Of a stretch of 64,000 bases of DNA, positions 31,249 to 59,534 are shown piece by piece. This DNA comes from Candidatus Harrisonbacteria bacterium (GTDB lineage: Bacteria; Patescibacteriota; Minisyncoccia; UBA6257; 1-14-0-10-40-38): the NCBI GenBank assembly GCA_023245035.1, contig JAHFLD010000001.1, positions 83,285 to 147,284 of the forward strand, read 5' to 3'. The number at the start of each line of letters is the position of its first letter. The first letter of the stretch is position 1. Under the pieces are notes generated by a model, which was not told the origin of the DNA, did not search any database, and worked only from the letters and a program-made list of their open reading frames with translations. A program made the translations under genes and the position numbers.

Positions 31249-32583
31249 ATGTGGCTCAAGATCGTTTTTAAGATTTTGCTACTCCCGATAGTTTTGGGTA
31301 GTATGTTATCCACCTCTGCCGAAGCGGCCGTGCCCCTGATTGATCGTGGAATGGTTCCCGGCAACGGCGATCAGGAAACCGCCGGCGAGGTTAGTGTTTG
31401 GCAAGAATATTTGATCCAAGGCGGTTATCTTAAAATCAACCAGCCAACCGGAATTTTTGGCGGACTAACGGGCCTAGCAACCGAACTCTGGCAAAAAGAT
31501 CACGACATCACGCCAACTTCTCCGTCTGTCGGACCGCGCGTGCGGGCCAAATTAAAAGAACTCGCGGAAACCGCGGTTAAGTCGCCGACACCGATCCAAC
31601 CAACATCACAGGTCTCCTCCGTTATCGGGTCTCCGACGCTGACAGATGGTCAAATTGTCCCGCTGACGCCATGTTTTGAGCGCCGGGTTCCTGAAATCTA
31701 CGCCACTATTGGCGAGGCGATTCGCGCCGCCTGTGCCAATGATCTAGTCTTAATCGGACCCGGCACCTACGAAGAAAGTATTATTAACATCACCCAGCCA
31801 GTTGTCATTCTGGGAGTTCAAGGGCGGGACAAGACGATTATTCGCGCCACCCGCGGACCGGCCTTATTGATTTCAGCTCCGATTTCCGGGGTCGTAATTG
31901 ATGGTCTCACTCTAATTGGTGCCACCAATCAACCCGCTGCTCTCGTTAATGTATCGCCTCGTCTCCTTACGCCAACCATTGCCTTAACGATCAAAAATTC
32001 TTCCCTAAAGAATTCCGAAATCGGATTGAGTGTTAGCGCGCCTGCCGGCGAAGTTGATGTTGAACGGACCATCATCGCCGAGAATCGGACTGATGGCGTT
32101 TCCGACAACTTCGGCGGAATAATTACCTTGGTCAACAACACCATCGCGCAAAACGATACCGGATATTCTTTGCAGAACCTCGGTGGTCATCACGTTCTTA
32201 CCAATAACATCATTGTCCAAAACAAAACCGACGGAGTCGCGGTGAGTTATCTGGGCAAAGAAACCACTCTGGATATGAATTACAACAACGTCGCCAATAA
32301 CGATAAGAACAATTACTACACCTATCGCGACGCGGCGGTTTTTGTTCCGCGGGGTTTGGTCAATCTAAGTTATAACCCGGGGTTTGTGTCTCAAAATGAC
32401 TATCGCTTAATTTCAACTTCAAAACTTATTGATGCCGGCGATCCCAAAACTCCGCTCGACGAGGATGGGACTCGAGCGGATATTGGGGCCTTGGCTTTTG
32501 ATCAGCGCCAGCTAAAAAGTGGCGCCAGTCTCTTGGTGAGTGTCGGAAAACTTCTCTCGCCGATAATTAGTTGGATGTGGTAG
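31249..32583 (+). CDS. secreted protein with an N-terminal peptidoglycan-binding-like domain and a right-handed parallel beta-helix (PbH1) repeat region
   Basis: Signal peptide. A PG_binding_1-like segment (VSVWQEYLIQGGYLKINQPTGIFGGLTGLATELWQ). Repeated beta-helix rungs (TNNIIVQNKTDGVAV / NNTIAQNDTGYSL / ERTIIAENRTDGVS). Confidence 0.65.
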   Translation: MWLKIVFKILLLPIVLGSMLSTSAEAAVPLIDRGMVPGNGDQETAGEVSVWQEYLIQGGYLKINQPTGIFGGLTGLATELWQKDHDITPTSPSVGPRVRAKLKELAETAVKSPTPIQPTSQVSSVIGSPTLTDGQIVPLTPCFERRVPEIYATIGEAIRAACANDLVLIGPGTYEESIINITQPVVILGVQGRDKTIIRATRGPALLISAPISGVVIDGLTLIGATNQPAALVNVSPRLLTPTIALTIKNSSLKNSEIGLSVSAPAGEVDVERTIIAENRTDGVSDNFGGIITLVNNTIAQNDTGYSLQNLGGHHVLTNNIIVQNKTDGVAVSYLGKETTLDMNYNNVANNDKNNYYTYRDAAVFVPRGLVNLSYNPGFVSQNDYRLISTSKLIDAGDPKTPLDEDGTRADIGALAFDQRQLKSGASLLVSVGKLLSPIISWMW

Positions 32584-33738: not shown

Positions 33739-34446
33739 ATGTCATTCAAAAAACTCTCTATCGTCATACCGGCCTATAACGAATCGGCTACCCTGCGCGA
33801 GATTATCGCCAAAGTTAAGGCGGTCCAACTTCCCGGCGGCTTAACCAAAGAGATAATTGTCGCCGACAATGGTTCGAGCGACGCCACGGAAGAACTGCTA
33901 AAAACCATACCCGACATCACGGTTCTGATTTTGCGCCCCAACCGTGGCAAAGGGGGAGCGGTCAAAGCCGGATTCGCGGCCGCGACCGGCGACTTGGTGA
34001 TTATCCAGGATGCTGACTTGGAATACGACCCCGAAGATTTTCCGGCTATGGTGCGCCCGATTCTTGATGGCAAGACCGAAGTCACGATCGGAGTTCGGAT
34101 TGAACCCGAACATGACGCGCGCAAGCACAAATCGCTCTACTGGGCGAGTTGGTTCGGCAATCACCTCATAACCTGGACGACCAATATTTTGTATCTCAAC
34201 AACGGCGGGGAATACGAAGGTTGCTACAAAGCCTTCACCAAAAAATTACTGGACCAGATTACCGTCAAAACTAACAATTTTGATTTTGATAACGAACTCG
34301 TCTGCAAAATCCTCAAGCAAGGATACAAAACCATAGACGTTCCCATCCGCTATTATCCCCGCAACTACGACGAAGGCAAAAAAATCAATTGGAAGCACGG
34401 CGTAAAAATCCTCTGGACGATTATCAAGTATCGCTTCGTGCGCTAA
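33739..34446 (+). CDS. glycosyltransferase family 2 (small soluble GT-A, DPM1/GtrB-like catalytic domain)
   Basis: LSIVIPAYNE, VADNGSSDAT and the DAD/DxD region (VIIQDADLEYDPEDF). 235 aa with no C-terminal TM segments. Confidence 0.8.
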   Translation: MSFKKLSIVIPAYNESATLREIIAKVKAVQLPGGLTKEIIVADNGSSDATEELLKTIPDITVLILRPNRGKGGAVKAGFAAATGDLVIIQDADLEYDPEDFPAMVRPILDGKTEVTIGVRIEPEHDARKHKSLYWASWFGNHLITWTTNILYLNNGGEYEGCYKAFTKKLLDQITVKTNNFDFDNELVCKILKQGYKTIDVPIRYYPRNYDEGKKINWKHGVKILWTIIKYRFVR

Positions 34447-38115: not shown

Positions 38116-39603
38116 CTAAGTCGGGGCTGTACTACTGCGCAAAATGAAGTCCGGGAGTCCCTGTCCCATGCTGTGTCCAAACTGAAGTTCGGGCACATCG
38201 GTCTGGTAGGGTTGTCCCAGTTTTTCTCGAAGCTCTCTTTCGGTCTCTCGGCACAGACGCGCCAAATCCTCGGCGGAAAGTTCATCGGTAAAGGCGAAGA
38301 AGCTGTCCAGCCCCATTCGCGCCCCGCGATCACCCTTGTAGTAGATGAAGTCCTTAAAGTAATCAACTTGTCTGGAATACAAGTGATCGCCATTTACCGT
38401 GTAAACCCAAACTCCATCCAAATGCGGAACCGCGTGGTCAAAGTAGGGCGTTCCCGGATAGACGGTAATCCGCGTCAGATCAAACGATTCCGGCCTCATC
38501 GCCAAAATCCAATCCTTTGTCTCTAAAATTGTCTCTTCGGTCTCGCCCGGATGCCCAACGGACATCAAGGCCTTAACTCTTAAGCCGTGTCGACGCGCTA
38601 TCTCCACGCACCGCGTATTATCTTCTCGAGTGGCGCCCTTCTTGATGTTGCGCAAGATACGGGGCGATCCCGATTCAAAGCCGGTCAAAATTTCGCGGAA
38701 TCCGGCCTCGTACATCGCCTCCGCCTGTTCGTCGGTAAAAAGTTCGGACTTGATGAACCCGCGCAGAGCCCATTCAATTCCCAACTCCTTGCCGAGTGTG
38801 GCAATGGCCCGCATGAGCGCTACCATTTGCGGATTAACATTTAGCTCATCGTCGTAAAACATTATCCCGCGGTAACCGTAGGTCTGGTAGATGTGGCGCA
38901 TCTCGGCAATCACGCTTTCCGTTGTTCGCACGCGAACCTTGCGCAAAAATGGCGATTCGCGCCCGCCGCAAAAACCGCATTGGAAGGGGCATCCCAACTG
39001 GGCGATCATGCTTGTGGCCGGCGCGCCGTTGATTCGGTAGTGATAGCTTTCCATCGCGACCAGATCACGGGCAGGAAAGGGTAGAGCCGTTAATTCTTCG
39101 GAAGTCAGAAATAACGGGCTGCGCCGATCATCGGCATCAATCAACTGTGGTCCGTTCGGATTAAGCGCCTCAAAGATCGCCTTCTCGCCGTCGCCGGCGA
39201 CCAGACAATCAAACATCTGGGCTAATCTTTGTAAATCATGATCCGCTCGGCCTAAAACGTTGCGTTCAACTTCTTGCCGTCTTGCCGCATTCACGAGTGT
39301 AACGTGTGGGCCGCCCAAGACTAACTTGATGTCCGGATTAAAATTCCGGATTATCTCCGCGATTCGCGCCGTTGCCGGCATCTGCGGGCTGGTCGCTGTA
39401 ATGCCAATGAACCAGGGTTTGTTTTTGCCGGCAATGTAGGCGCAAACCGCCTCGGGGTAGTTGGCCACTCCGGACAAGTCCAAGACATCAACCTCGATTT
39501 TTTTTTCCCGCAACACCGCCGCTACCCGTAAAACTCCGATGTGAGTGAAGAATCTTTCATCGCTCAAAATGAGCGACGGGGGAATGATTAAACCGACAGG
39601 CAT
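38116..39603 (-). CDS. B12-binding radical SAM enzyme (class B radical SAM; cobalamin-binding domain plus radical SAM core)
   Basis: N-terminal B12-binding-like Rossmann segment. CxxxCxxC cluster motif (GCPFQCGFCGG). Start at the internal Met, preceded by AAGGAG 5 nt upstream. The terminator hairpin overlaps its stop (38108-38125). Confidence 0.8.
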   Translation of the reverse strand: MPVGLIIPPSLILSDERFFTHIGVLRVAAVLREKKIEVDVLDLSGVANYPEAVCAYIAGKNKPWFIGITATSPQMPATARIAEIIRNFNPDIKLVLGGPHVTLVNAARRQEVERNVLGRADHDLQRLAQMFDCLVAGDGEKAIFEALNPNGPQLIDADDRRSPLFLTSEELTALPFPARDLVAMESYHYRINGAPATSMIAQLGCPFQCGFCGGRESPFLRKVRVRTTESVIAEMRHIYQTYGYRGIMFYDDELNVNPQMVALMRAIATLGKELGIEWALRGFIKSELFTDEQAEAMYEAGFREILTGFESGSPRILRNIKKGATREDNTRCVEIARRHGLRVKALMSVGHPGETEETILETKDWILAMRPESFDLTRITVYPGTPYFDHAVPHLDGVWVYTVNGDHLYSRQVDYFKDFIYYKGDRGARMGLDSFFAFTDELSAEDLARLCRETERELREKLGQPYQTDVPELQFGHSMGQGLPDFILRSSTAPT

Positions 39604-39720: not shown

Positions 39721-41415
39721 ATGCGACTCCTATCGGCAAAAAAGCACGTTATCATCCTAAGCGCTATTTTTTTGCTCGCGCTCGCGGTTCGTTTAGTTGG
39801 GGTTCAATATGGCTTGCCCCAGGAATACGTTGGCGACGAGTATGTTCAAGTTGCCGTCGCGCTCAAAATGCTGGACACGAGGTCGCTCACGCCAAATTTT
39901 CCCACGATTTTTTATCATCAACCGCTTAGCGCCTACATTTCCACCGCGGGTATCGCGACTTATCTTGGCTCGCAAATGCTCACCGGACGGTTTGCGGACC
40001 TTGCCGCCATGCGCGACTACTATGCCGTTCACGCGAGCGATCTTTTAATTGTTATCCGCTCGCTCGCGGCTCTGCTCGGAGCGTTCTCTGTTTTTTTTAT
40101 CTATGCCGCGGGGCGCGACTTATGGAGTAAAAAAGTCGGCTACCTAGCCGCGCTCTTTTTTGCCTTGGAGAGTGTGGCGGTCTACGTCGGGCATAGCGGG
40201 CGGGTCTGGGGCTATATGGTTTTTTTTATCTCACTCTCCCTCTCTGCGTCGGTTAAGCTTTTCCAAAATCCCACGGCGAAAAATTACGCGCGTCTGACTT
40301 GGACGACGATTCTCGCCGCCGCCAACGCCCTGCCCGGGATTTTTACCCTGGCGCCGACCCTCCTCACCCAATCCTGGCGTCATAATAAAAACCTTGGGAA
40401 ATCCCTTCTGATAATTATACTTGGCGTAATTTTGATCGTCCTCATGAGTCCGCGAGGCTTGGGCGCCCTGATTTTTAGATTCCAAAGTTTAAGTGGCGGC
40501 AATCTGACGCAACTCGTCTCCGGCAATCCGATTACTTATGAAGTCGCGCCGGTTCCACTAGTTAAGCGCTTTAGCGATCCCTTAAAAACACTTCTAACCT
40601 ATTCGCCGGGAATAACGCTCCTCGCGTTTTTGGGGATTATCATACTCTGGCGAAAAGAACGGAAAACCGCCTTGATGCTCCTAACCTTTCCGGTTGCTTA
40701 TTATCTCTTCATCGGTCCGTTTTTTACCTTCGGCTGGGTAGTGAGAACTCTTATTGTTTTTTCTCCTTACTTAAGCCTCTTCGCGGCTTATGCCATATTT
40801 CGTCTCGCTAAATCTACTTCGCGATATGGCAAGCTCTTCGCTGGCTCGCTTGCGGTGCTCGGCCTTCTTCCCGGAATTGTCTTTGCCTACTTGATCGATG
40901 TCAAACTCTCCCTCGCCGACACGCGCACGGAGGCCATCGAATGGGTCTACCAAAACCTTCCCGAACACTCCAAGATTATCGCCTTTTCACTCACTAACGA
41001 CGTCATCAACCAGGATCGCGACGTTTTGAAAGTCATGCAAAACTTCGTGCCGCAGAAGTTGAATAGCCGGCAAAGAACCTTGCTTTCCGCTCAGGATGGC
41101 AAGTTTCCGCGTCCTTATTATTTTGCCTGGGACGCGCGGGACAGCGGCGTGGACGCTCTGCCGAAAAATTTTTTCAAAGATCAAGGTTTTACCTATTATT
41201 TGCGGACCGATTGGGGCGGTCGTCCGCAGTCATTTTATGACGAAGCCGTGGAAAGAGTTTTTAAAACCAAAGAACTGATTGTCACCTTTGATCCATATTC
41301 CAAGCTGCCGACTGGCGAGTTCGGCAGTCTGCACAACATGATAAATCCGTGGGACGCGCTCTTTAAAGCAACGCGCTTCGGCCCTCGGGTAGAAATTTAT
41401 CGGGTTGAGTATTAA
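39721..41415 (+). CDS. GT-C family polyprenyl-phosphate-sugar-dependent glycosyltransferase (ArnT/PMT-like)
   Basis: About 12 TM helices. A DE-containing first extracytoplasmic loop (EYVGDEYVQVAVALKM). A large C-terminal soluble domain. 564 aa from the first ATG. Confidence 0.6.
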   Translation: MRLLSAKKHVIILSAIFLLALAVRLVGVQYGLPQEYVGDEYVQVAVALKMLDTRSLTPNFPTIFYHQPLSAYISTAGIATYLGSQMLTGRFADLAAMRDYYAVHASDLLIVIRSLAALLGAFSVFFIYAAGRDLWSKKVGYLAALFFALESVAVYVGHSGRVWGYMVFFISLSLSASVKLFQNPTAKNYARLTWTTILAAANALPGIFTLAPTLLTQSWRHNKNLGKSLLIIILGVILIVLMSPRGLGALIFRFQSLSGGNLTQLVSGNPITYEVAPVPLVKRFSDPLKTLLTYSPGITLLAFLGIIILWRKERKTALMLLTFPVAYYLFIGPFFTFGWVVRTLIVFSPYLSLFAAYAIFRLAKSTSRYGKLFAGSLAVLGLLPGIVFAYLIDVKLSLADTRTEAIEWVYQNLPEHSKIIAFSLTNDVINQDRDVLKVMQNFVPQKLNSRQRTLLSAQDGKFPRPYYFAWDARDSGVDALPKNFFKDQGFTYYLRTDWGGRPQSFYDEAVERVFKTKELIVTFDPYSKLPTGEFGSLHNMINPWDALFKATRFGPRVEIYRVEY

Positions 41416-41421
41416 CCAGGC

Positions 41422-42522
41422 ATGACCCAAAAAATTAAAGTAGTTGTAATTGTGGGCGCCCGTCCCAACTTCATGAAGGCGGCGCCACTCTTGCGCGCTA
41501 TGCGCGCCGGTAAAAAAATTGAACCGGTATTGATTCATACCGGCCAGCATTACGATCAAACCATGTCGGGATCTTTTTTTGAAGATCTCAAGCTTCCAAA
41601 GCCGGACTTGTTTTTGAACGTCGGCTCGGGAACTCACGCCGCGCAAACCGCTAAAATAATGCTGGCCTTGGAATCCGAGTTAATTCGCCTTAACCCCCGT
41701 CTGGTAATTGTAGTCGGCGACGTCAATTCAACCATTGCCGCGGCCTTGACCGCCAAAAAACTTGGCATCCAGGTCGCTCACGTTGAGTCCGGTCTCCGTA
41801 GTTTCGACGAAACCATGCCCGAAGAAATAAATCGAATACTCACCGATCACATCTCCGACTATCTTTTTGTAACCGAATCTAGCGGCATAAAAAATCTGCG
41901 CCGCGAAGGAATTGATTCTGGCAAAATATTTTTCGTGGGCAACGTCATGATTGATTCGCTGTATCAGAACCTGCCCCAAATCAACCGTTCAGAAATTATA
42001 GGAAAAATCGGAGTTACCAAAAAAAATTATGCTGTCCTTACCCTGCATCGGCCGGTGAATGTCGATGCCAAAGAATCGCTGGCGAAGATCCTTAAAATAA
42101 TTACCGAGGCAGTCGTCGACACCGAAGTTGTCTTTCCGGTGCATCCTCGCACTCGGAAGAATTTTGAAGCCATCTTGGCCGATGAAAGCATTGACCCGCG
42201 TCGCATCAAGGTTGTGGAACCATTGGGATATCTGGATTTTAATGCCCTCGTCAAAGACTCGCTTTTTGTCTTGACTGATTCCGGCGGCATCCAGGAGGAG
42301 ACCACCGCCTTGGGAATTCCCTGTATAACCCTGCGAGAAACCACGGAGCGCCCGATAACGGTTATACTGGGTACTAATCACATTGCCGGAACCGATCCGA
42401 AAAAAATCACGGCGATTATAAAAAAAATTAAACAGGGGAAGAATAAGAAAAATCACCAGGTTCCCAAATGGGATGGCCGCGCGGCCGAACGCGTTGTCAA
42501 AATTCTCCAAAAAAAATTATGA
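41422..42522 (+). CDS. wecB: UDP-N-acetylglucosamine 2-epimerase (non-hydrolysing)
   Basis: VVIVGARPNFMKAAPL, HTGQHYD and DSGGIQEETTALGIPCITLRETTERP. Confidence 0.9.
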   Translation: MTQKIKVVVIVGARPNFMKAAPLLRAMRAGKKIEPVLIHTGQHYDQTMSGSFFEDLKLPKPDLFLNVGSGTHAAQTAKIMLALESELIRLNPRLVIVVGDVNSTIAAALTAKKLGIQVAHVESGLRSFDETMPEEINRILTDHISDYLFVTESSGIKNLRREGIDSGKIFFVGNVMIDSLYQNLPQINRSEIIGKIGVTKKNYAVLTLHRPVNVDAKESLAKILKIITEAVVDTEVVFPVHPRTRKNFEAILADESIDPRRIKVVEPLGYLDFNALVKDSLFVLTDSGGIQEETTALGIPCITLRETTERPITVILGTNHIAGTDPKKITAIIKKIKQGKNKKNHQVPKWDGRAAERVVKILQKKL

Positions 42523-43475
42523 ATGTCTCGGTAGTCATTCCAACCTACAACGAAGAGTTGGCCATCGCGGAAAACGTCAAAAAAGTCATAGCGGCTCTTG
42601 AATCGAGCGGCAAGACCTGGGAATTAATTCTGGTCAACGATGGCAGCAAAGATCAGACGCTTTCCATTATTCAAGCCCTGGCCGCTAAAGAAAGGCGTCT
42701 CTGCGTTGTTTCTTATCCAGTCAATCGGGGGCGGGGCTACGCCTTGCGGCGTGGTTTTGCAGCCGCTCAAGGAGACTACATCATCGCCACCGAATCGGAC
42801 TTAAACTGGGGCAGTGAAATCATCGGCGCCTTTATTAGGAAATTGGATGAAGGCGATGCCGATCTGGTTATCGCCTCCCCGCACATGCCGGGCGGCCGCA
42901 TGGAAAACGTTCCCTTTCTTCGCTGGCTCTTGAGTTATCTGGGCAACAAGGTTTTTGCTCTCGCCTTTCCGGGGCGCATGACCATGTCGACCGGCATGAC
43001 GCGGGCCTATCGGCGCGAAGTGCTTGAATCTATGGATTTGGAAGCCGACGACAAAGAACTCCACATTGAAATTTTGTCTAAGGCTTTTGATTTGGGTTAT
43101 CGGATCGTGGAAATACCGGCCACTCTTCGCTGGAAGCTCGCCAAGCCCGGAGCGCCGGTGCGAAAATCAAGCTTCAAAATGGGCTCCATTATCAAGCATC
43201 TCGTGGTTAGTGTTGATGTCCAGCCCTATCTTTTTTTTGGCGGCCTCGGCTTTTTATTTATCCTCGTCGGCGCCTTGTTGGGGCTCTATCTCTTATGGCT
43301 TTCACTTTCGGGAGTCGGCGTCGCCGGCCGTCCGGCTCTTTTCGCCTCGGTGCTTTTTATCGTGGTTGGAATTCAAATTTTAATCTTTGGCTTTTTGGCA
43401 AGCCAAAATCGCGAACTCAAGCGCCAATTTATTCGGACTCAAAAGCTCATCAAGGAAACAACTAAACAAAAATAA
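42519..43475 (+). CDS. GT2 polyprenyl-phosphate glycosyltransferase (ArnC/GtrB/DPM1-like, with a C-terminal membrane anchor)
   Basis: VSVVIPTYNEE, LVNDGSKDQT and TESDLNW, plus two C-terminal TM helices. ATG overlaps the wecB stop (ATGA). Confidence 0.8.
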   Translation: MNVSVVIPTYNEELAIAENVKKVIAALESSGKTWELILVNDGSKDQTLSIIQALAAKERRLCVVSYPVNRGRGYALRRGFAAAQGDYIIATESDLNWGSEIIGAFIRKLDEGDADLVIASPHMPGGRMENVPFLRWLLSYLGNKVFALAFPGRMTMSTGMTRAYRREVLESMDLEADDKELHIEILSKAFDLGYRIVEIPATLRWKLAKPGAPVRKSSFKMGSIIKHLVVSVDVQPYLFFGGLGFLFILVGALLGLYLLWLSLSGVGVAGRPALFASVLFIVVGIQILIFGFLASQNRELKRQFIRTQKLIKETTKQK

Positions 43476-43478
43476 TCC

Positions 43479-44474
43479 GTGAAAGCCAAACTAATCTATT
43501 TTTCAAAAATTGGGGTTACGCTTGGGCTACTCGCTTATTTTTTGACCAAGGTTAACCTCCGTGATTCCTATGTGGCCATTAAAGCTGCCGACCCCAAGCT
43601 TTTTTTATTCGCCATAGTTATCACTGTTATCTCTTGGTACCTCGCCGCAATTCGTTGGAGCGCCGTTCTAGGCTTGATGCAGACTCAAGCTTCCGCTAGT
43701 CAGCTCTTTCGGATCAACCTCATCGGCACCTTTTATTCCATGGTCTTGCCAGGTGGCAAGTTGGCTGGTGATGCCATGTCAGCCCATCGTTTCACTAAAT
43801 ATCAAAGTCAAGGAGGCTACAGCAAGAAATATTTTTTGTCAGTCGTTATGGATCGTTTTTTTGGAATGCTCGGCATTTTTATTTTTCTCGGCTTTTATCT
43901 TCTTGCGCGCCGATCTGGCGTCTCGGCGCTTGGCAGACAAGAGTGGCTAGTAGGTCTTATCACTGTCACACTTGCCGGTCTGGGCTTGTTGGCCATTTTT
44001 TCAAACACATTGGATTTATTGATGCTTTGGGTGACCAAATTGCCGATTCGGGCACTCCAAAAATTGCGGGAACCGATTCGTGATGGTTTGCAAAAAATTC
44101 GACAAAAAAAATCCAAACTTTGGGGATTGTTGGGTATTACTGGAGTTTCTATGTTTTTTTCTATTCTTTCGGTCTATATCGTAAACCTTGCCGTTGGACT
44201 CAACGCCTCTTTCGAAATCATCGCCTTTGCTTATTCACTCTCCACTATCTTTATCGTCATTCCCATCACGCTCGCCGGCATTGGATTACGCGAGGGGACT
44301 ATCGTTTATATTTTGACTAAGGTCGGATTTGAAACGCCAAAATCAGTGGCCCTTGCTTTTTTGGGCATCGGCTTACTTTTTATTTTCGCCGCCACCGGCG
44401 GGCTTTTGGAATTAATGGGAATTATTCGCTTGGGTGGAAAAAATCATGACTCTCATAACCAGATTCAAGCATAG
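43479..44474 (+). CDS. flippase-like membrane protein (lysylphosphatidylglycerol-synthase TM-region / TIGR00374-like)
   Basis: 8 predicted TM helices. Family motif (RINLIGTFYSMVLPGGKLAGDAMSAHRF). The usual genomic partner of GtrB/ArnC-like GT2 enzymes. Confidence 0.6.
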   Translation: MKAKLIYFSKIGVTLGLLAYFLTKVNLRDSYVAIKAADPKLFLFAIVITVISWYLAAIRWSAVLGLMQTQASASQLFRINLIGTFYSMVLPGGKLAGDAMSAHRFTKYQSQGGYSKKYFLSVVMDRFFGMLGIFIFLGFYLLARRSGVSALGRQEWLVGLITVTLAGLGLLAIFSNTLDLLMLWVTKLPIRALQKLREPIRDGLQKIRQKKSKLWGLLGITGVSMFFSILSVYIVNLAVGLNASFEIIAFAYSLSTIFIVIPITLAGIGLREGTIVYILTKVGFETPKSVALAFLGIGLLFIFAATGGLLELMGIIRLGGKNHDSHNQIQA

Positions 44475-45795
44475 TCTCGAAAATAAAACCGGTGAGTGGC
44501 TGGGAATTATTCTTCTCATTGGCTTAGCCAGCGCATTGTTCTATGCGTTTTATTTTAAAATTCAGCCTAGCGTTGATGCTCGGGCCTATGATTCTATTGC
44601 CTGGGATATCGCCCAAGGCAAGGGCTACGATACCGATAGCGCTATTGGCCGCCCCGGTCCGGGATATGAATATTTTTTGGCTGGTATTTTTTCTATCTTT
44701 GGACATCGGTATCCAGCAATTTGGATTTTTCAAGCCATCTTAATTGCCGGATCAGCCTATCTGACCTTCCAGACGACGCGCCGTGTTTTCGGCCAAGTCT
44801 GGCATCCAATAATTGGACTTGCGGCTGCCGCGCTTGTATCTTGGTCGCCGGATTTGATTACCTCGGCAAGCATGTTGATGACCGAGGTGCTCACGGTCTT
44901 TCTGACCACTGCCACAATCTGGGGTTTCTTAAAATATCTTTCAACGGAACGCCGGCAAGGCATTGTGCTTACCGCGGTCGTCCTGGGATTGGCAGTTCTG
45001 ACTCGATCCAATACCATCCTTTTAATTCTGCCACTCGGTGGCGCCTTGATCTATCGACGTGAGTGGAAGCGGGGATTACTTTTGGTACTGGTTTTCATGG
45101 CGGTACTTGCCCCATGGGCTCTGCGAAATTATAGGGTCTATGGTGAACCACTGCCCTTCAACGGTGCCGCCGGACTCCTCTATGTGGGCAATCACTCCGG
45201 ATCTTCCGGGGAATTGGATTTGCATTATGACCTGCCGGTTGGCTACGGTGATTTTACTACCATGACTCAATTTGAAAACGACCAAGCGCTTCGTCGGGCA
45301 GGTCTAGATTATATCAAAAGTCATCCGCTGGATTTTATTCGCCTCTCGCTACAAAGGATTTCGGTTTATTTTAGCTTTGCCCGCCCCTTCGCTTTTTGGC
45401 CGCATCTCGTTGGCAATGCTCGCAAGGTTAGCATTGGACTCTCTAGTTTTTACGCGGCGGTTATATTCATAGGTGGTGGTTTGGGGACGCTTCTTGGCCT
45501 TCTCAAAGGAATCTTACCCAATCGCCAGCATATGGCCGTGCTTGGAGCGGCTATTCTTTCGTTGCCGCTTGCGATCGCGCCGCTTATCGTAGAAACACGC
45601 TATCGTTTTCCCAATTATCCCTTATTGGCCATTGGAGCCGGCTTTATGATTCATGCACTTTTCACTCACCGGGATTGGCTCGGAAAATTAGCGAAACAAT
45701 TGTGGATCGGTTTGGTGTTGATAGGAGGAAATACCATCTACGACGTCGCGCGTAACTTTGGTCGTATAGTGATTCGCCTTAAGAATCCGAGCTAA
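44446..45795 (+). CDS. GT-C family glycosyltransferase (PMT_2/ArnT-like)
   Basis: N-terminal loop with an acidic motif (YDSIAWDIAQGKGYDTD), followed by about 11 TM helices. The ORF track opens at a GTG at 44434. The start is placed at the ATG. Confidence 0.65.
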   Translation: MTLITRFKHSLENKTGEWLGIILLIGLASALFYAFYFKIQPSVDARAYDSIAWDIAQGKGYDTDSAIGRPGPGYEYFLAGIFSIFGHRYPAIWIFQAILIAGSAYLTFQTTRRVFGQVWHPIIGLAAAALVSWSPDLITSASMLMTEVLTVFLTTATIWGFLKYLSTERRQGIVLTAVVLGLAVLTRSNTILLILPLGGALIYRREWKRGLLLVLVFMAVLAPWALRNYRVYGEPLPFNGAAGLLYVGNHSGSSGELDLHYDLPVGYGDFTTMTQFENDQALRRAGLDYIKSHPLDFIRLSLQRISVYFSFARPFAFWPHLVGNARKVSIGLSSFYAAVIFIGGGLGTLLGLLKGILPNRQHMAVLGAAILSLPLAIAPLIVETRYRFPNYPLLAIGAGFMIHALFTHRDWLGKLAKQLWIGLVLIGGNTIYDVARNFGRIVIRLKNPS

Positions 45796-45799
45796 ATTT

Positions 45800-46966
45800 A
45801 TGGAATTCAAAAAAGTAGAAAAAAAACTCCGGCTTTCTCTGGTTGGCCCGTTGCATCCTTTCAAGGGAGGGATCGCCCATCACAACACACTCCTGGCAAA
45901 CGAGTTTTTAAAACATTCCGATATTGATCTGCAAGTCATCTCTTTCAAGAGAATTTTTCCAGCGTGGGTCTATTGGCGGACTCAGCGAAAAAATGCCAAA
46001 GATATCGAGAGTAAGAATTTTTTTCAGGGTCAGGCCGAATTCATACTGGACATGCTAAATCCTATAACCTGGTGGCGCACCGTCAAAAAAATTAAAGCCC
46101 ATCATCCGGAAGTTGTTATATTTCACTGGTATACCCCGCTTCTCGCGCCGCCATTTTGGATTCTGACTGCGCTTATTAAGCGCTATACCACAGCGCGGAT
46201 TGTCGCTATGTGTCACAACGTGTTACCGCACGAAAAACTTCCCCTGGATAAATTCTTAACCGGTTTGGTTTTTAAAAACGTTGATGCGTGTATCGTACAA
46301 TCAGAAGCTGATCGAATGGTGCTCCACGCCTGGCTTCCAAATAAAGCCACTATCAACGCCTTTCACCCCTTTTATGATTTTTTTTATCAGCCGATTCCGC
46401 GGGAAACAGCTCAAAAAAAACTCGGGATCAGTGGTCGAGCACTCTTATTTTTCGGTGGCATTCGAAAATATAAAGGATTGCCGTATTTGTTAGAAGCTCT
46501 AGCGATAGTGGTGCGAGAAATGCCGGTTACGCTTGTTATCGCCGGCGAATTTTTCCATGACAAAAAGCCCTACCTTGATCAAATCAAAAATCTGGGCATC
46601 GAAAAATATGTCAAAATCGTGGATCGATATATTTCCAACGAAGAAGTTCCAACTTTTTTTCTTGCTACCGACGCGCTGGTAACGCCCTATATTTACGGGC
46701 CCCAATCCGGCGCCGCCGCCGTGGCCTATTCCTTCGAGAAGCCGGTCATTGGTAGCGAAAACCTTAAAGAAGTCATTCGGGAAGGCCAGACTGGTTTTTT
46801 AGCCCGAGCCAAAGACAGCGCTGATTTGGCAATGGTCATTCTAAAATTTTATCGTGAAAGTGGTCGGATAAATTTTGCGATGAATATTCAAAACATAAAA
46901 CGAGAATTTTCCTGGGAAGCGCTATGTCAACGAATAATCTCCGGCCTTTGGAATTCCAAGGCTTAA
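45800..46966 (+). CDS. glycosyltransferase family 4-like (GT-B)
   Basis: GT-B architecture. C-terminal nucleotide-sugar-binding-like segment (GEFFHDKKPYLDQI ... YSFEKPVIGSENLKEVIREGQTGFL). Confidence 0.7.
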   Translation: MEFKKVEKKLRLSLVGPLHPFKGGIAHHNTLLANEFLKHSDIDLQVISFKRIFPAWVYWRTQRKNAKDIESKNFFQGQAEFILDMLNPITWWRTVKKIKAHHPEVVIFHWYTPLLAPPFWILTALIKRYTTARIVAMCHNVLPHEKLPLDKFLTGLVFKNVDACIVQSEADRMVLHAWLPNKATINAFHPFYDFFYQPIPRETAQKKLGISGRALLFFGGIRKYKGLPYLLEALAIVVREMPVTLVIAGEFFHDKKPYLDQIKNLGIEKYVKIVDRYISNEEVPTFFLATDALVTPYIYGPQSGAAAVAYSFEKPVIGSENLKEVIREGQTGFLARAKDSADLAMVILKFYRESGRINFAMNIQNIKREFSWEALCQRIISGLWNSKA

Positions 46967-46992
46967 ACTTAAAACCGAAATTATGCTACGTG

Positions 46993-48063
46993 ATGCCGGA
47001 ATATCAAGCGAAGAGTCACACGCACTTCGCTTATCTTCGTGACTTTATTCAGGAGCTGGCAAAATCGTACAACATTCAACTTCTGATTGAAAAGGGGGAA
47101 TTGCCAAAAGCAGACTTGGGTGTTTATCGAACCCTGTTAATAAATAAACTAGGCTTAAACCAAATTATAAGTTTGGCCGTTGCTTTAATAAAAATTCGGC
47201 AAGCCGGATGCAAAGTCGTCTATATTCATTACTCTTTTCGCGCGGCGTTTCTCGCGAGCTTTATATTTCGCTTGACCGGCGGTCGGGTATATTACTGGAA
47301 TTGTGGCCTCCCCTGGCAATATAAAAAAAATTTACCTCGGCTAATATTTGAATTTATTACCTATCATCTGATCAATAAACTAATAACGGGCACCGAGGGA
47401 CTCAAGAGGCGATATGCCCATCACTACCGTCTTAATTTGAGTAAAATCGAAGTAATGCCGAATTGGATAAATCTTCAAGACCAGCCAGCCAGCGGACCAT
47501 CCACGATAAAAAAAGATCTTGGCCTAACGTCAAAAACGCGTTTAGTGCTTTTTGTGCATCGGCTTTCCGAAAGAAAAGGTGCCAATTACCTAAGGGCCAT
47601 AGCCCAGGAATTGAAAACCGAAAGCGATGTTGCGCTAGTTGTAATCGGTGACGGCCCAACAATGATTGAACTGAAAAAAGAAATCAAAGATCAAAACCTT
47701 GAAGCTAATATAAAATTACTTGGCTGGCTCCCCCAAGAAATCATCCATCGTTACTATCAAGCCGCCGCCGTCATGATCATTCCCTCGGAAGAAGAAGGAT
47801 TTCCCCATGTGCTTCTAGAATCGTTTTTCGCCGGAGTTCCAGTAGTCGCCTTTGATGTCGGCGGCATTGCCGAGATTATACCGCCTGAGCTCACTCCGTA
47901 CCTGGTCGAACCTGGAAATATTAAAAAGTTTATCCAGGCCATCAAAACATTGCTACATACTTCACCGATTGAAATTAAAAATCTGGAAACCGCCGAAAAG
48001 AAATGGGTTGAACAATTTAGTCTGAAAAAAGTAGTCGCTCGCTTTAAGTCGCTAATACAATGA
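46993..48063 (+). CDS. glycosyltransferase family 4 (GT-B)
   Basis: SEEEGFPHVLLESFFAGVPVVAFDVGGIAEII. Start at the internal ATG after the upstream gene's stop. Confidence 0.8.
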   Translation: MPEYQAKSHTHFAYLRDFIQELAKSYNIQLLIEKGELPKADLGVYRTLLINKLGLNQIISLAVALIKIRQAGCKVVYIHYSFRAAFLASFIFRLTGGRVYYWNCGLPWQYKKNLPRLIFEFITYHLINKLITGTEGLKRRYAHHYRLNLSKIEVMPNWINLQDQPASGPSTIKKDLGLTSKTRLVLFVHRLSERKGANYLRAIAQELKTESDVALVVIGDGPTMIELKKEIKDQNLEANIKLLGWLPQEIIHRYYQAAAVMIIPSEEEGFPHVLLESFFAGVPVVAFDVGGIAEIIPPELTPYLVEPGNIKKFIQAIKTLLHTSPIEIKNLETAEKKWVEQFSLKKVVARFKSLIQ

Positions 48064-48139: not shown

Positions 48140-49114
48140 ATGAAAACCGCCTTAATTACCGGCATCACCGGTCAGGACGGCTCCTATCTGGCCGAATTCC
48201 TGCTTAAGAAAAAATACCATGTTTTTGGTTTGGAGCGGCGCACTAGCAAGCGTAACCGCGAAAGCATTGAGCATCTTATAGACAAAGTTGAACTGCTTTC
48301 CGGCGATTTATTGGACGCGGAATCAATTACTCGTGCTCTCAAGCAATCAAAACCCGACGAAGTTTATAACTTAGCTTCGCAGTCATTCATTCCAGATTCC
48401 TGGCGGCAACCGGTATACACCGGTGAAGCCACCGGCCTCGGTGTCACTCGAATGCTTGAAGCAGTTCGGGAATTTGATCCAAATATAAAGTTCTATCAGG
48501 CCTCCACTTCGGAAATGTTCGGCAAAGTTCGGGCAACTCCGCAAAACGAAGGTACTCCCTTTCATCCGCGCAGCCCTTACGGCGTGGCTAAACTCTATGG
48601 TCATTGGATAACGATTAATTATCGGGAATCCTATGGTATGTTCGCGGTATCGGGAATTTTATTCAATCACGAATCTCCCCGCCGCGGCTTGGAATTCGTA
48701 ACTCGAAAAATTACCCACACAGCAGCCAAAATTAAGCTGGGATTAGCCAAGGAATTGCGCCTGGGCAACACTAGCGCTGAACGTGATTGGGGCTTTGCCG
48801 GCGACTATGTTGAAGCAATGTGGCTCATGTTGCAACAGGAAAAACCGCAAGATTATGTTATCGCGAGCGGGGAGACGCATTCGGTAGAAGATTTTGTACA
48901 GGCAACATTCAAGTATCTTAAACTCGATCCAAAAAAGTACGTAAAAATTGATAAGAAGTTTTTCCGACCAGCGGAAACGGATTATCTCCGAGGTGATGCC
49001 GGTAAAGCCCGGCGTGAACTCGGCTGGAAACCGAAAGTCGGTTTTGAAAAATTGGTGCAAATGATGGTTGATGCCGATCTCGCGGCTCTCTCTTCTTCAA
49101 AGATATCCAAATAA
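48140..49114 (+). CDS. gmd: GDP-mannose 4,6-dehydratase
   Basis: [19 protein letters not shown] with the SDR YxxxK ([10 protein letters not shown]); a full-length match to the GMD family pattern. Confidence 0.9.
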
Positions 49115-49119
49115 TAAAT

Positions 49120-50454
49120 ATGAAAAAAGCAATGGTCTCAAAAAATAATCCTGAATTGTGTCGAGCGGTTAATAATTGTCGTTCCTGTGGCTTTGCTCCA
49201 CTTGTCGATATTTTGTCGTTGGGGGATCAATACGTGTCTAATTTTATTGAGAGCCATGACAAGCTAAAAGACGAAAAAAAATATCCTTTAGAACTGGTGC
49301 TTTGCGATGTTAGTGTCGGAGGGTGTGGACTCTTGCAACTTCGCCACACAGTTTCCCCGGAGAAAATGTATAGAACTTACTGGTATTTTTCGGGGATGAA
49401 CAAAACCATGACCGATGAACTCGCTAACATCGCGCAAACCGCGGAAAAAATCACTAATCCAAAAAAGGGGGATATTGTTGTTGATATTGGCTGCAACGAC
49501 GGAACGCTACTCAAATCATATCAAACGCCGGGCTTGGTGCGCGTTGGTTTTGAACCGGCAAAAAATCTGGTACCTCTCGCTAAAAAAATCGCCACCAAAG
49601 TTTTCAATGAATTCTTCGGATCAACGCCTTTCACTAAGGCTTATGGTCGCAAAAAAGCCAAAGTAGTCACCGCTATTGCTATGTTTTACGACTTAGACGA
49701 CCCCAATGCTTTCGTGTCGAGCGTCAAAAAAATTCTGGACCAAAAAGGTATCTTCATAATCCAGATGAACTATCTCGCTTCTATGTTGACTTTGAATGCT
49801 TTTGACAATATCGGTCACGAACACTTGGAATATTATTCCTTGCTCTCATTGGAATATTTGCTGAAACGGCACGCTTTGGAAGTGTTCGATGTAGAACTAA
49901 ATCCGATTAACGGCGGTAGCTTCCGTGTTTATATTCGTCATCAAGGAAGTATGGTCGGCAACGAGCGACAAGGGCGCCAGAAGCGGCGAGCCGAACTTCT
50001 CGCTACAGAAAAAAAGATGGGATTAAACAAGCGCCCAGTTTACGATAAGTTTGTAAAACGAGTTCATGACATTCGCCAAAAAGTTACCTCTTTCATAAAT
50101 TCCGAAACCAAACAGGGTCGGAAAGTTTACATCTATGGCGCCTCCAACCGCGGCAACACCTTACTCCAGTTTTTTGGGTTGGATTCAAAAGTTATCACCG
50201 CCGCCGCCGAACGCAATCCGGTCAAATGGGGAATGAAGACCATTGGTACAAATATTCCCATTATCTCGGAGGCGCAGGCTCGTGAAGAGAAACCTGACCA
50301 CTTTTTGGTTCTCCCCTGGGCTTTTCTCAAAGAATTTATAAATCGGGAAAAAGAATATCTGGCTTCCGGTGGGCGCTTCATTGTTCCCTTGCCGACAATG
50401 AAAATAATCTCGAGCGATGATCTGAAACCGGAATCCAAGACTACTGGCGTTTAG
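49120..50454 (+). CDS. sugar C-methyltransferase-family protein (N-terminal zinc ribbon, SAM MTase domain, C-methyltransferase C-terminal domain)
   Basis: CxxC...CxxC zinc-binding N-terminus (CRAVNNCRSCGF). SAM motif (VVDIGCNDG). Architecture of TylCIII/NovU-type NDP-hexose C-methyltransferases. Confidence 0.75.
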   Translation: MKKAMVSKNNPELCRAVNNCRSCGFAPLVDILSLGDQYVSNFIESHDKLKDEKKYPLELVLCDVSVGGCGLLQLRHTVSPEKMYRTYWYFSGMNKTMTDELANIAQTAEKITNPKKGDIVVDIGCNDGTLLKSYQTPGLVRVGFEPAKNLVPLAKKIATKVFNEFFGSTPFTKAYGRKKAKVVTAIAMFYDLDDPNAFVSSVKKILDQKGIFIIQMNYLASMLTLNAFDNIGHEHLEYYSLLSLEYLLKRHALEVFDVELNPINGGSFRVYIRHQGSMVGNERQGRQKRRAELLATEKKMGLNKRPVYDKFVKRVHDIRQKVTSFINSETKQGRKVYIYGASNRGNTLLQFFGLDSKVITAAAERNPVKWGMKTIGTNIPIISEAQAREEKPDHFLVLPWAFLKEFINREKEYLASGGRFIVPLPTMKIISSDDLKPESKTTGV

Positions 50455-56279: not shown

Positions 56280-57350
56280 ATGATTAACCCCGCGAAAAAA
56301 CTAAAAGGCAAGACCGTTCTAGTTACCGGTGGCGCCGGTTTTATCGGCTCTCACTTAATAGATCGCCTCTTAAGCTATGGCGCGCGAGTCATTTGCTTTG
56401 ACGATCTATCAACTGGCCGCCAAGAATACATTGACTCAAAAAAAGATGACCGAAATTTTATCTTTATCAAAGGCGATGCCAATGAAATGAAGGATATTAA
56501 AAAAGCCTTTAGCCATGGTCCGGTTGATTATGTTTTTCACTACGCCGCTCTGGTGGGGGTTCAGCGGACCATTGAAGAACCACTAAAAGTTTTGAAAGAT
56601 ATTGACGGCATCAAGCACATCTTGGAACTCGCGCTTCAGCACAAGATTAAAAAAATCGCCTACGCCTCTTCTTCCGAAATATATGGCAACCAAGAAAAGA
56701 TGCCTCTGCACGAGGAAAATTCCTATTACGACATCAAAATGCCCTACGCGCTGGTTAAGTCAGCCGGGGAGAATTTTTTCCGGAGCCACTGGGAATTATC
56801 TGGGGTGCCGGTTGTTATCTACCGCTTCTTCAACGCTTATGGTCCGCGACAAGCAAGCTCAATGTATGGCTTTGTGACCGGGGTATTTATTTCCCAGGTT
56901 TTGCAGAATATACCACCGACCATTTTTTACGACGGCAAACAAACCAGGGATTTCATGTATATCGATGACAACATCGAGGCCTCGATTCAAGGACTTTTAA
57001 ATGACAAGACCACCGGAGAAACAATCAATCTTGGCACCGGCCGGGAAACTACCATTCTTGAGCTAGCCAACAAAATCATCAAAATCTCCGGAAAGAAGCT
57101 TAAGCCATCCTTGTTAAACAAAAGAAATTTAATAGAAATCAAACGGCGAGTAGCAGACACCGCGAAAATGAAAAAAATAATTGGTTACAGACCGCGCGTT
57201 TCCTTGGAAGACGGCCTCCGACGAACTTATGATTGGTACGCCAACAATCCACAATTCATCGCGCAAGGGGAGCGGACGACTTACGCCTGGCGAAAGAAAA
57301 ATGTCTGGGCACCGATTAAAAAATCAAGCAAAACCAAGAAGAAGTCCTAA
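56280..57350 (+). CDS. NAD-dependent epimerase/dehydratase (extended SDR; UDP-glucuronate decarboxylase / UDP-sugar 4-epimerase-like)
   Basis: VLVTGGAGFIGSHLIDRLL, YxxxK (YALVK). Length 356 aa. Confidence 0.85.
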   Translation: MINPAKKLKGKTVLVTGGAGFIGSHLIDRLLSYGARVICFDDLSTGRQEYIDSKKDDRNFIFIKGDANEMKDIKKAFSHGPVDYVFHYAALVGVQRTIEEPLKVLKDIDGIKHILELALQHKIKKIAYASSSEIYGNQEKMPLHEENSYYDIKMPYALVKSAGENFFRSHWELSGVPVVIYRFFNAYGPRQASSMYGFVTGVFISQVLQNIPPTIFYDGKQTRDFMYIDDNIEASIQGLLNDKTTGETINLGTGRETTILELANKIIKISGKKLKPSLLNKRNLIEIKRRVADTAKMKKIIGYRPRVSLEDGLRRTYDWYANNPQFIAQGERTTYAWRKKNVWAPIKKSSKTKKKS

Positions 57351-57351
57351 A

Positions 57352-58620: not shown

Positions 58621-58714
58621 TTCCTTGATGTAACTATACGCATCTGACCAAGCGTTAACAATAGAACCCGCGATTGGGTCTATGAAGTTTGTACCTTTAC
58701 AATCGGAGATCTCC

Positions 58715-59428
58715 ATGAAAATTGCCCTCCTCATGACCGAAGAAAACATTGTCGGTCGAGAGATTCTACTGCACGCTTTGAAAGCCGAACCAGCCGTGAA
58801 AATAGGTCTAGTGATCGTTGAAATAGGTGAACGAGCCAACAAAGAAAAGGTCTACCTCAGAAATGACTTTCACAATCCGCCAACTTTTGCAGAAGCGCTC
58901 AACTTGCTCCGAAAGAAAAACGCAGCGGCAGATCATACGACGATAGTGGTTCAAACCGGAAATCTGAACAACGACGCCGTCGCTCGTTGCTTGCTGGAAT
59001 ATAGCCCAGATTTGATCTTGTTGGACGGATCCACGATCATCAAGAAAAAAATTTTTGAAACGGCGAGGATTGGCGCGGTTAACTCTCACCCGGGTCTTCT
59101 GCCAAAGTATCGTGGTGTTGATTCAGTTCGCTGGGCGATATATCACGGCGATCCAGTCGGAACCACCTGCCATCTGGTAAATGATGGCATTGATACTGGC
59201 CCCATTCTTCTAATGGAAGAAGTGCCCTACGAAAAAGGAATGTCGCTGCTAGAGATTCGTGTCAGCGCAATGATCGCCGGTGTTCGTCTGATGATTGATG
59301 CCGTACAAAGACTGGCAGATGGAGTGTTGTCTCCTAAATCGCAATCCAACGAAGGTGCCAACTACTTTTCCTGGGCTCCAGTAGAAGTTCAAAATGCTGT
59401 TGAAGCCAAGCTATCAGTGAACACCTAA
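58715..59428 (+). CDS. formyltransferase-family protein (Fmt/PurN/ArnA-N-like; candidate sugar N-formyltransferase)
   Basis: Formyl_trans_N signature (VNSHPGLLPKYRGVDSVRWAIYHGDPVGTTCHLVNDGIDTGPIL). Start placed at the internal Met (MKIALLMTE). Confidence 0.8.
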   Translation: MKIALLMTEENIVGREILLHALKAEPAVKIGLVIVEIGERANKEKVYLRNDFHNPPTFAEALNLLRKKNAAADHTTIVVQTGNLNNDAVARCLLEYSPDLILLDGSTIIKKKIFETARIGAVNSHPGLLPKYRGVDSVRWAIYHGDPVGTTCHLVNDGIDTGPILLMEEVPYEKGMSLLEIRVSAMIAGVRLMIDAVQRLADGVLSPKSQSNEGANYFSWAPVEVQNAVEAKLSVNT

Positions 59429-59450
59429 GCCCCTTACCGGGGCTTTTTTA
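59428..59450 (+). terminator. rho-independent terminator
   Basis: aagcccc ttacc ggggctt followed by ttttat, immediately after the formyltransferase stop. Confidence 0.6.
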
Positions 59451-59534
59451 TAGTCAGCTCTGGTAGTTCATGTTATCGTGAAGTTAACCTCGATTTTTTT
59501 TATGGGTAAATCAGTGTCTAATCACCGTCGTCTT

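Follow-up and report, generated by a model that had tools for sequence, protein, structure and literature searches.

What is made, and where is it delivered, by an operon that sets two membrane glycosyltransferases of the GT-C class beside an epimerase, a GT2-family glycosyltransferase and a flippase-like protein? This question is raised by a 64,000-nucleotide stretch of Candidatus Harrisonbacteria DNA (contig JAHFLD010000001.1, positions 83,285 to 147,284; hereafter the window), in which five back-to-back genes on the + strand, at 39.7-45.8 kb, encode a first GT-C enzyme (GT-C1), WecB, a GT2 with C-terminal transmembrane (TM) helices (long GT2), a flippase-like protein and a second GT-C enzyme (GT-C2). 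By combining profile searches, structure models and comparison of related loci, we define a membrane glycosylation module of seven genes that is conserved in Parcubacteria-type genomes and has relatives and fusions that reach DPANN archaea. On balance, we think it probable that the module forms two parallel polyprenyl-phosphate-sugar donor/GT-C transfer units working on the outer face of the cytoplasmic membrane in a monoderm member of the Candidate Phyla Radiation (CPR).

Protein families of the module

An earlier reading of this DNA from its letters and open reading frames (ORFs) alone, here called the sequence-only reading, had proposed the same five genes as a polyprenyl-phosphate-sugar donor system. 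All five ORFs are present where it placed them and on the same strand: GT-C1 at 39721-41415, wecB at 41422-42522, the long GT2 at 42519-43475, the flippase-like gene at 43479-44474 and GT-C2 at 44446-45795. Each of the starts at 39721, 42519 and 44446 is an ATG inside a slightly longer ORF and agrees with the public gene calls on the source contig. The two overlaps that it described are likewise seen in the sequence; the wecB TGA (42520-42522) and the long GT2 ATG (42519-42521) overlap as ATGA, and the GT-C2 ATG (44446) lies 29 nucleotides short of where the flippase-like gene ends (TAG at 44472-44474). A promoter and terminator scan of the operon returned counts near shuffled background and was uninformative. 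The module is larger than first described, since it comprises seven genes and includes a short GT2 of 235 residues (33739-34446, + strand) and a B12-binding radical S-adenosylmethionine (rSAM) enzyme (38116-39603, - strand), both upstream of GT-C1.

The family labels given earlier to wecB, the GT2 with its C-terminal TM segments and the flippase-like gene are borne out by Pfam and NCBIfam profiles and by hydrophobic segments. WecB, a non-hydrolysing UDP-GlcNAc 2-epimerase, matches TIGR00236 at 344 bits (cutoff 210) and PF02350 at 353 bits, and is the sole module protein to reach a curated equivalog cutoff. The flippase-like product, a polytopic membrane protein of 331 residues with about eight hydrophobic segments, aligns to positions 4-299 of the 302 of PF03706 (LPG_synthase_TM; 122.7 bits, gathering threshold (GA) 33.4) and exceeds the TIGR00374 cutoff (67.5 bits versus 43.2). 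Its family, LPG_synthase_TM/COG0392, shares homology with the MprF flippase domain and with the C-terminal domain of AglD; a comparison with PDB sequences gave nothing meaningful. No Pfam match to GtrA, SMR or MATE was found among the operon proteins, the small ORFs elsewhere in the window not having been scanned, and since the genes are contiguous or overlapping there is no room within the operon for a further small flippase ORF. The slot that such a protein would take in the operon is occupied by the LPG_synthase_TM protein.

The long GT2 (318 residues; PF00535, 104 bits) carries hydrophobic segments at residues 232-292, its C-terminal helices, and matches solved structures over its full length: ArnC at 84 bits, the Pyrococcus DPMS at 80 bits and GtrB at 53 bits. 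ArnC is its best match in both NCBIfam and PDB, with a score against the ArnC model NF007986 of 99 bits, the cutoff being 529. The short GT2 (PF00535, 114 bits) has no TM segment. Its best NCBIfam matches are AglJ (TIGR04182, 108 bits), ArnC, Dol-P-hexose transferase and PpgS, all below cutoffs, the PpgS-type alignment spanning profile positions 4-217 of 226; among solved structures it matches ArnC at 66 bits (residues 3-213) and DPMS at 58 bits. The long GT2 scores 94 bits with the AglJ model, for which the cutoff is 325, and the PgfS model gave 72 bits against a cutoff of 500. Indeed, the curated cutoffs for ArnC, AglJ, PgfS, PpgS and Agl23 were reached by no module protein. By these matches, both GT2s belong with the DPM1/GtrB/ArnC clade of polyprenyl-phosphate glycosyltransferases. 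The rSAM enzyme combines PF04055 (92 bits) with PF02310 (51 bits) and reached no NCBIfam cutoff, its best matches being PhpK, HpnJ and AprD4.

GT-C1 (564 residues) and GT-C2 (449 residues, without a large soluble domain) are distant homologues of one another (hhalign profile-profile comparison, probability 97%), and their profile matches differ. GT-C2 scores above GA for both PMT_2 (51 bits, GA 26.1) and the N-terminal PMT domain PF02366 (36.5 bits, GA 22.7); GT-C1 has a PMT_2 match below threshold, no NCBIfam match and no PF02366 match. Neither protein matched PMT_4TMC (PF16192) at E<=0.01 or the YfhO, STT3 and Wzy_C domains of Pfam. NCBI labels homologues 'glycosyltransferase family 39 protein'. 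A profile search of both against PDB sequences gave no match at E<=1, so that fold comparison alone was informative. AlphaFold models built on homologue alignments reached a pLDDT of 83 and a pTM of 0.85 for GT-C1, and 91.7 and 0.92 for GT-C2. When these models were compared with PDB by Foldseek, every significant match (E<=0.001) was a GT-C enzyme, from a set that includes STT3/AglB/PglB, ALG9/ALG12, ArnT, Pmt4, Pmt1/2, DPY19, AftA/B/D and Emb. The top matches of GT-C1 were STT3, AglB and PglB; those of GT-C2 included AglB, STT3, PglB, ArnT, Pmt4 and AftB. The sequence-only reading had stated that its PMT/ArnT-like assignment would fall if both proteins belonged to the O-antigen ligase/polymerase families. 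No WaaL or Wzy structure or domain, and no O-antigen-ligase match, was found among the fold or Pfam matches of either protein, and the GT-C assignment therefore stands. The structural classification that it proposed yielded the GT-C_A fold for both enzymes and went no further, because fold scores do not separate GT39, GT83, GT66 and GT22 and so leave the nearest GT-C family undecided.

The acidic loop residues that the same reading singled out are conserved in both proteins. In GT-C1, D39-E40 lies just after TM1, is invariant in 18 close homologues and is 95-96% conserved in 126 diverse family representatives, in which R113 and R342 are conserved at 100% and 92%. In GT-C2, D44, Y48, R69, E147, R313, R385 and Y386 are invariant in 39 homologues, and D44 opens the first loop helix. 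An Asp-Glu pair is typical of PMTs. At the loop 1 site GT-C1 has D39-E40, which may correspond to the PMT motif, and GT-C2 has D44-A45. From the models, both proteins can be described as GT-C_A-fold enzymes with a conserved Asp in the predicted first outer loop.

GT-C1 represents an uncharacterised GT-C family. It ends in an alpha/beta domain of about 165 residues (residues ~400-564) that is kept across the family, and a hidden Markov model (HMM) search of 1.84 billion representatives recovered 233 cluster representatives at E<1e-30. A genome scan with the GT-C1 profile had given only 7 loci because that method needs near-exact peptide patterns; the HMM search shows a much larger family. Membership in the STT3/AglB/PglB group, to which its best Foldseek matches belong, was considered for GT-C1 and ruled out: neither GT-C sequence contains a WWD motif, there is no WWDYG-type motif and no Pfam STT3 match, and the wider family does not keep the W470-D471 pair seen in GT-C1.

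Synteny and gene fusions

To what extent do these genes travel together? Related loci were compared by tblastn with the window proteins and represent, together with the window, nine independent CPR genomes. The recurring order is short GT2, (rSAM), GT-C1, (wecB), long GT2, flippase-like gene, GT-C2 and one or more GT4 genes. The long GT2 occurs in nine of nine genomes, and GT-C2 and the flippase-like gene in all eight loci that are long enough to judge. The flippase-like gene adjoins the long GT2 in seven of the eight assessable genomes; in L004 it lies directly upstream of GT-C1 instead. In eight of nine genomes, and also in loci L014/L015, wecB is next to the long GT2. The short GT2 is found within 10 kb upstream of GT-C1 in seven of nine genomes and abuts it in L008; of the other two, L004 has a 235-residue GT2 cut by the locus end and L006 has too short an upstream sequence. 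GT4 orthologues (43-49% identical) stand 3' of GT-C2 in L002, L003, L004, L005 and L008, and in the window two GT4 genes with Glycos_transf_1 / Glyco_trans_1_4 matches follow the module directly (45800-46966 and 46924-48063, both + strand). Named homologues of GT-C1 and GT-C2 are labelled as Patescibacteria/CPR, namely Candidatus Harrisonbacteria, Pacebacteria/Paceibacterota, Parcubacteria and some metagenome-assembled genomes labelled Saccharibacteria. The window also carries ordinary bacterial housekeeping genes, recA, ftsK, rny and clpB among them.

The rSAM enzyme is a conserved neighbour of GT-C1 and possibly acts in sugar modification. A B12-rSAM gene lies immediately upstream of GT-C1 in L002 (8429-9937), L003 (8580-9995), L005, L007 and L010, and in L013 (6586-8004) one stands beside a remote GT-C1 relative, with stop and start overlapping. 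The gene is inverted in the window and in L005, and in the window MBL-fold, HAD, GalU-like and NUDIX genes stand between the short GT2 and the rSAM gene. The recurrence of B12-rSAM genes beside members of the GT-C1 family suggests that the enzyme modifies a sugar, for example by methylation, deoxygenation or ring contraction. L003 and L013 each have three B12-rSAM genes and several S-adenosylmethionine-dependent methyltransferases.

Natural fusions tie several of these families together. One protein of 557 residues (P0228) is 58% identical to the long GT2 over residues 1-234 and 33% identical to the flippase-like protein over the remainder, an architecture that is AglD-like in the archaeal sense, and it is encoded between wecB and a PMT_2 gene (431 residues) in one operon (L014/L015). 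This fusion suggests that it is the LPG_synthase_TM protein which handles the product of the long GT2. Among the 233 representatives of the GT-C1 family, some remote relatives carry N-terminal GT2, GT4 or methyltransferase domains. GT4::GT-C1-like fusions are exemplified by P0138 and P0176, and in P0196 (MFH1587663.1), from the DPANN archaeon Candidatus Diapherotrites, a GT2 domain is fused to a GT-C1-like domain. The GT2 domain of P0196 is 38.5% identical to the short GT2 versus 31% to the long GT2; a clearly short-GT2-like domain is present in only one of three GT2::GT-C1-like fusions. The presence of P0196 in a DPANN archaeon is a hint that CPR bacteria and DPANN archaea share the GT-C1 family.

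Two further arrays deserve mention. A Logan contig from SRR22387933 (L012, 1-18424) has five genes for PMT_2 proteins and six whose products include a GT2 domain, a GT2::PMT_2 fusion being part of both counts; it resembles an assembly line of lipid-linked-sugar transfer pairs and recalls the mycobacterial lipoglycan pathways or the ALG pathway of the endoplasmic reticulum lumen. In L016, a GT2 of 228 residues precedes, at some remove, adjacent rSAM and PMT_2 genes.

Proposed transfer units and competing explanations

The two units that we propose are unit A, made up of the short GT2, the rSAM enzyme and GT-C1 (33739-34446, 38116-39603 and 39721-41415), and unit B, made up of WecB, the long GT2, the flippase-like protein and GT-C2 (41422-45795). 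In unit B, WecB would convert UDP-GlcNAc to UDP-ManNAc, and the long GT2 would move a sugar from its nucleotide form to polyprenyl phosphate at the membrane's cytoplasmic face; that sugar is possibly ManNAc or another N-acetylhexosamine (HexNAc), a guess from gene coupling. The MprF-flippase-like protein would then carry the polyprenyl-phosphate-sugar across the membrane, and GT-C2 would hand the sugar to an extracytoplasmic acceptor by means of the conserved Asp that opens its first outer loop. In unit A, the short GT2 would make a second polyprenyl-phosphate-sugar, the B12-rSAM enzyme may modify it, and GT-C1 would transfer it through its conserved Asp-Glu pair. Each chemical step in this scheme, from the lipid donor chemistry and the flipping to the GT2/GT-C pairing, the sugars and the acceptor, is one that we infer, starting from the gene content, folds, conserved residues, synteny and fusions observed above. 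In support of the scheme, the genes are contiguous or overlapping, their order recurs in nine CPR genomes, and both fusion types exist. The LPG_synthase_TM family is predicted to flip lipid-linked sugars in archaeal neighbourhoods that combine GT2 and PMT/STT3-like genes (PMC5898192), and both Gtr-type three-component systems (PMC11127046) and Pgf (PMC12041528) provide precedents.

Several points weigh on the other side. The donor sugars are guesses because WecB is the only protein to score above a curated equivalog cutoff. It is also conceivable that the short GT2 is an ordinary soluble member of its family whose task is to lengthen a glycan, and the UDP-ManNAc made by WecB may simply supply the neighbouring GT4 enzymes. 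Two donors are proposed but only one flippase-like gene is present, and the module in L003 lacks wecB altogether. Furthermore, flippase activity has been reported for Agl23, a PMT_2-like protein of archaea (PMC11182771), and a GT-C fold alone is therefore no proof of transferase activity.

One alternative, a serious one though to our minds less likely than the two-unit scheme, is protein O-glycosylation of the Pmt/Pgf kind, in which the GT-Cs would take monosaccharides from polyprenyl-phosphate donors and put them directly onto Ser/Thr residues of secreted or wall-anchored proteins. That GT-C2 exceeds the Pfam thresholds for PMT and PMT_2, and that GT-C1 has an Asp-Glu pair of the kind typical of PMTs, would suit such enzymes, yet PMT_4TMC was found in neither GT-C. 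The Pgf system follows the same logic, since Ser/Thr-rich regions are its targets and its set of enzymes comprises a GT-A enzyme, an epimerase and two GT-Cs (PMC12041528), but these GT-Cs are of the YfhO family and not PMT_2. A candidate substrate lies in the window, in the form of a giant protein of 1221 residues (22332-25997, + strand) that is rich in Ser, Thr, Ala and Gly (24% Ser+Thr) and bears a signal peptide, together with a PG_binding_1 domain and a linker that reads TPTPTPTP. It is, however, 14 kb from the module with unrelated genes between, and in related loci no comparable large Ser/Thr-rich ORF is found up to 10 kb from the module. Synteny thus gives no support to the giant protein, which the sequence-only reading had put forward as a candidate acceptor; the 1701-residue neighbour in L002 looks Rhs/toxin-type, and the role of the giant protein as acceptor is a guess.

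What the surrounding genes contain bears on a further, unlikely explanation, an archaeal-style en bloc pathway. Here a DPM1/AglJ-like GT2 would prime polyprenyl monophosphate, the GT4 enzymes would extend the glycan in the cytoplasm, the MprF-like protein would flip it, GT-C1 (with its C-terminal domain) would pass it en bloc to a surface protein or polymer, and a final sugar, taken from a second lipid-monophosphate donor, would be attached by GT-C2. In Haloferax, AglJ primes the glycan and AglS adds the final sugar. AglJ is the best or second-best match of both GT2s, STT3, AglB and PglB head the Foldseek list of GT-C1, and both the GT4::GT-C1-like fusions and the GT-C1-like fusion of a DPANN archaeon would fit such a pathway. 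The module is embedded in a glycan island. Between 26.8 kb and a point about 10 kb past the end of the window, no gene of this island matched a Pfam family of phosphoglycosyltransferases, Wzx, Wzy or ABC exporters, and the four polytopic membrane proteins of the module are the only ones in the window part of the island. If these four were the whole membrane machinery of the island, the en bloc pathway would be indicated; GT-C1 would then be a new kind of oligosaccharyltransferase without a WWDYG motif, and would found a GT-C family with a conserved C-terminal domain, a B12-rSAM partner and DPANN relatives. Our preferred reading is that the missing machinery lies elsewhere on the contig and that what the module decorates is a glycopolymer, or the glycan of a glycoprotein, produced by the island.

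We give a slightly lower chance than to the en bloc pathway to the idea that one GT-C-like protein is the translocator of the lipid-linked sugar, as has been reported for Agl23, and that the LPG_synthase_TM protein has another role. Agl23 is described as a hexose-P-dolichol flippase and flips a lipid-linked oligosaccharide in proteoliposomes (PMC11182771), and GT-C2 matches the Agl23 model TIGR03663, albeit weakly, at 25.6 bits, far under its cutoff of 126. Both GT-Cs retain what a catalytic member of their class is expected to have, namely the acidic loop residue and the conserved arginines, and the fusion of long GT2 and flippase-like domains favours the LPG_synthase_TM protein as the one that handles the GT2 product. 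Modification of lipid A by an ArnC/ArnEF/ArnT-type pathway, a likeness raised by the sequence-only reading, can practically be dismissed. The ArnC matches of the long GT2 and the presence of ArnT among the structural matches of both GT-Cs recall this pathway, but the ArnC cutoff is missed by a wide interval, neither GT-C has an NCBIfam ArnT match, and ArnA, ArnB, ArnD, ArnE and ArnF are absent from the window. Moreover, the named homologues are labelled as Patescibacteria/CPR, which are described as monoderm and without lipopolysaccharide, and a lipid A acceptor is implausible for that reason.

How does the proposed two-unit scheme compare with systems already described? The general mechanism is known: the module would work like the three-component systems of the Gtr or CsbB-YfhO type, its parts are closest to the archaeal GT2/COG0392/PMT-like module, and its layout is closest to Pgf. 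By the curated thresholds it falls in none of the named families. The Gtr-type systems (GtrA/GtrB/GtrC in Shigella and Salmonella, CsbB/GtcA/YfhO in Firmicutes, and the pentofuranose systems of PMC11127046) have in common with the module a GT2 synthase, a membrane translocator and a GT-C with an outward catalytic loop, all encoded together. In the module, by contrast, the translocator is an LPG_synthase_TM/COG0392 protein of about eight TM segments and not a small GtrA/SMR-type or MATE protein, there are two GT2s and two GT-Cs, WecB and the B12-rSAM enzyme belong to the conserved set, and the host is a monoderm CPR bacterium without O antigen. The likeness to GtrA/B/C that the sequence-only reading noted thus holds as analogy and fails as membership, there being no GtrA-type small flippase in the operon.

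In archaea, arCOG00899 (MprF-flippase-like), arCOG00563 (PMT/STT3-like, Agl23) and arCOG00897 (AglD/Agl22-like GT2) represent the same three families, and their neighbourhood was predicted to act in glycosylation by Makarova et al. 2015 (PMC5898192). The module shares with it the order GT2, flippase-like gene and GT-C2, the AglD-like fusion seen in P0228 and the GT-C1-like fusion in a DPANN archaeon; it differs in being bacterial and in adding a second GT2/GT-C pair, WecB and the rSAM enzyme. Its proteins are not orthologues of Agl23 or AglJ, given their scores of 25.6 bits against 126 and of 94 and 108 bits against 325. The Pgf operon of S. mutans (PgfS, PgfE, PgfM1 and PgfM2) likewise joins a GT-A/GT2 enzyme, an epimerase and two GT-Cs, and adds HexNAc outside the cell, but its GT-Cs are YfhO-family, its epimerase is not described as a WecB-type 2-epimerase and it has no LPG_synthase_TM protein (PMC12041528). 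As for ArnC/ArnE-ArnF/ArnT, the long GT2 matches solved ArnC over its full length and the GT-C fold is common with ArnT, set against missed cutoffs, absent ArnA/B/D/E/F genes and a lineage in which no lipid A is expected. AglD/AglS and actinobacterial Ppm1/Pmt pair a DPM1-like synthase with a PMT_2/PMT-type GT-C that uses a lipid-phosphate-monosaccharide on the outer face, and in Haloferax volcanii AglD/AglR/AglS adds mannose from Dol-P-mannose to the S-layer N-glycan. The module differs from these in having no PMT_4TMC, no Wzx-like AglR and no sign that mannose is the sugar.

What sets the module apart is that a bacterial three-component system here includes an MprF-like translocator, that one conserved module has two donor/transferase pairs and a conserved B12-rSAM partner, and that the uncharacterised GT-C1 family takes part. 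The sequence-only reading was broadly correct in its interpretation, which is partly supported. The donor system that it proposed fits the families, the fold, the acidic loop residues, the synteny and the natural fusions, whereas its ArnT analogy fails on the acceptor. Its idea of two different sugars gains from the second ArnC/DPMS-like GT2, which is syntenic with GT-C1.

CPR/Patescibacteria make up a large share of bacterial diversity and live attached to other cells, and their surfaces are almost unstudied. Our literature searches on PF03706 with glycosyltransferases, and on glycosylation in CPR, Patescibacteria and Saccharibacteria, found nothing specific to the module. The module offers concrete candidates for the decoration of CPR surfaces, connects the three-component glycosylation of bacteria with the MprF-like flippase module that has been predicted in archaea, is a natural test case for the translocation of polyprenyl-phosphate-sugars by COG0392 proteins, and flags the GT-C1 family and its rSAM partner for biochemistry.

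The glycan island and its neighbours

To which acceptor might the module deliver its sugars? Most likely, the acceptor is a surface glycoconjugate built by the surrounding island, which could take the form of a wall or membrane glycopolymer or of the glycan of a surface protein. The island begins near 26.8 kb and continues for at least 10 kb past the window end (L017), thus over at least 47 kb. Its genes include at least eight for GT4 enzymes, gmd, one for a TylC3-type sugar C-methyltransferase, two for DegT-type aminotransferases, one for a formyltransferase, a NeuC-like gene, NeuB, two that are CMP-sugar synthetase-like, and more radical-SAM and oxidoreductase genes.

Just past the two GT4 genes that follow the module, the stretch 48140-50454 (+ strand) encodes a GDP-mannose 4,6-dehydratase (TIGR01472, 439 bits, cutoff 415) followed by the TylC3-type C-methyltransferase (Methyltransf_13/14). 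The position of gmd directly before the C-methyltransferase suggests that the glycan contains a C-methylated 6-deoxyhexose, and GDP-mannose is more likely used by Gmd (48140-49114). Further downstream, 56280-64000 and positions 11357-21335 of L017 hold an apparent nonulosonic-acid pathway of the legionaminic or pseudaminic type, with a dehydratase/epimerase, the two DegT aminotransferases, the formyltransferase (58682-59428), the NeuC-like gene, the two CMP-sugar synthetase-like genes and NeuB, which runs off the window end. Beyond these, the island goes on with GFO/IDH oxidoreductase genes, one more B12 radical SAM gene and a gene for an AsnB-like amidotransferase.

Upstream of the module, between two GT4 genes of the island, 31249-32583 (+ strand) encodes a secreted right-handed beta-helix protein of 444 residues with a weak, sub-threshold PG_binding_1 match. 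Between clpB and the giant surface protein, 20240-21019 (+ strand) encodes a polytopic membrane protein of 259 residues with about nine hydrophobic segments and no Pfam or NCBIfam match at E<=0.001. Finally, a phosphoglucomutase/phosphomannomutase is split into two ORFs (8820-9245 and 9242-10123, + strand) with a 4-nucleotide ATGA overlap; the first holds domain I with the TASHNP active-site motif and the second holds domains II-IV, and the split is either real or the result of a frameshift or an error in assembly.

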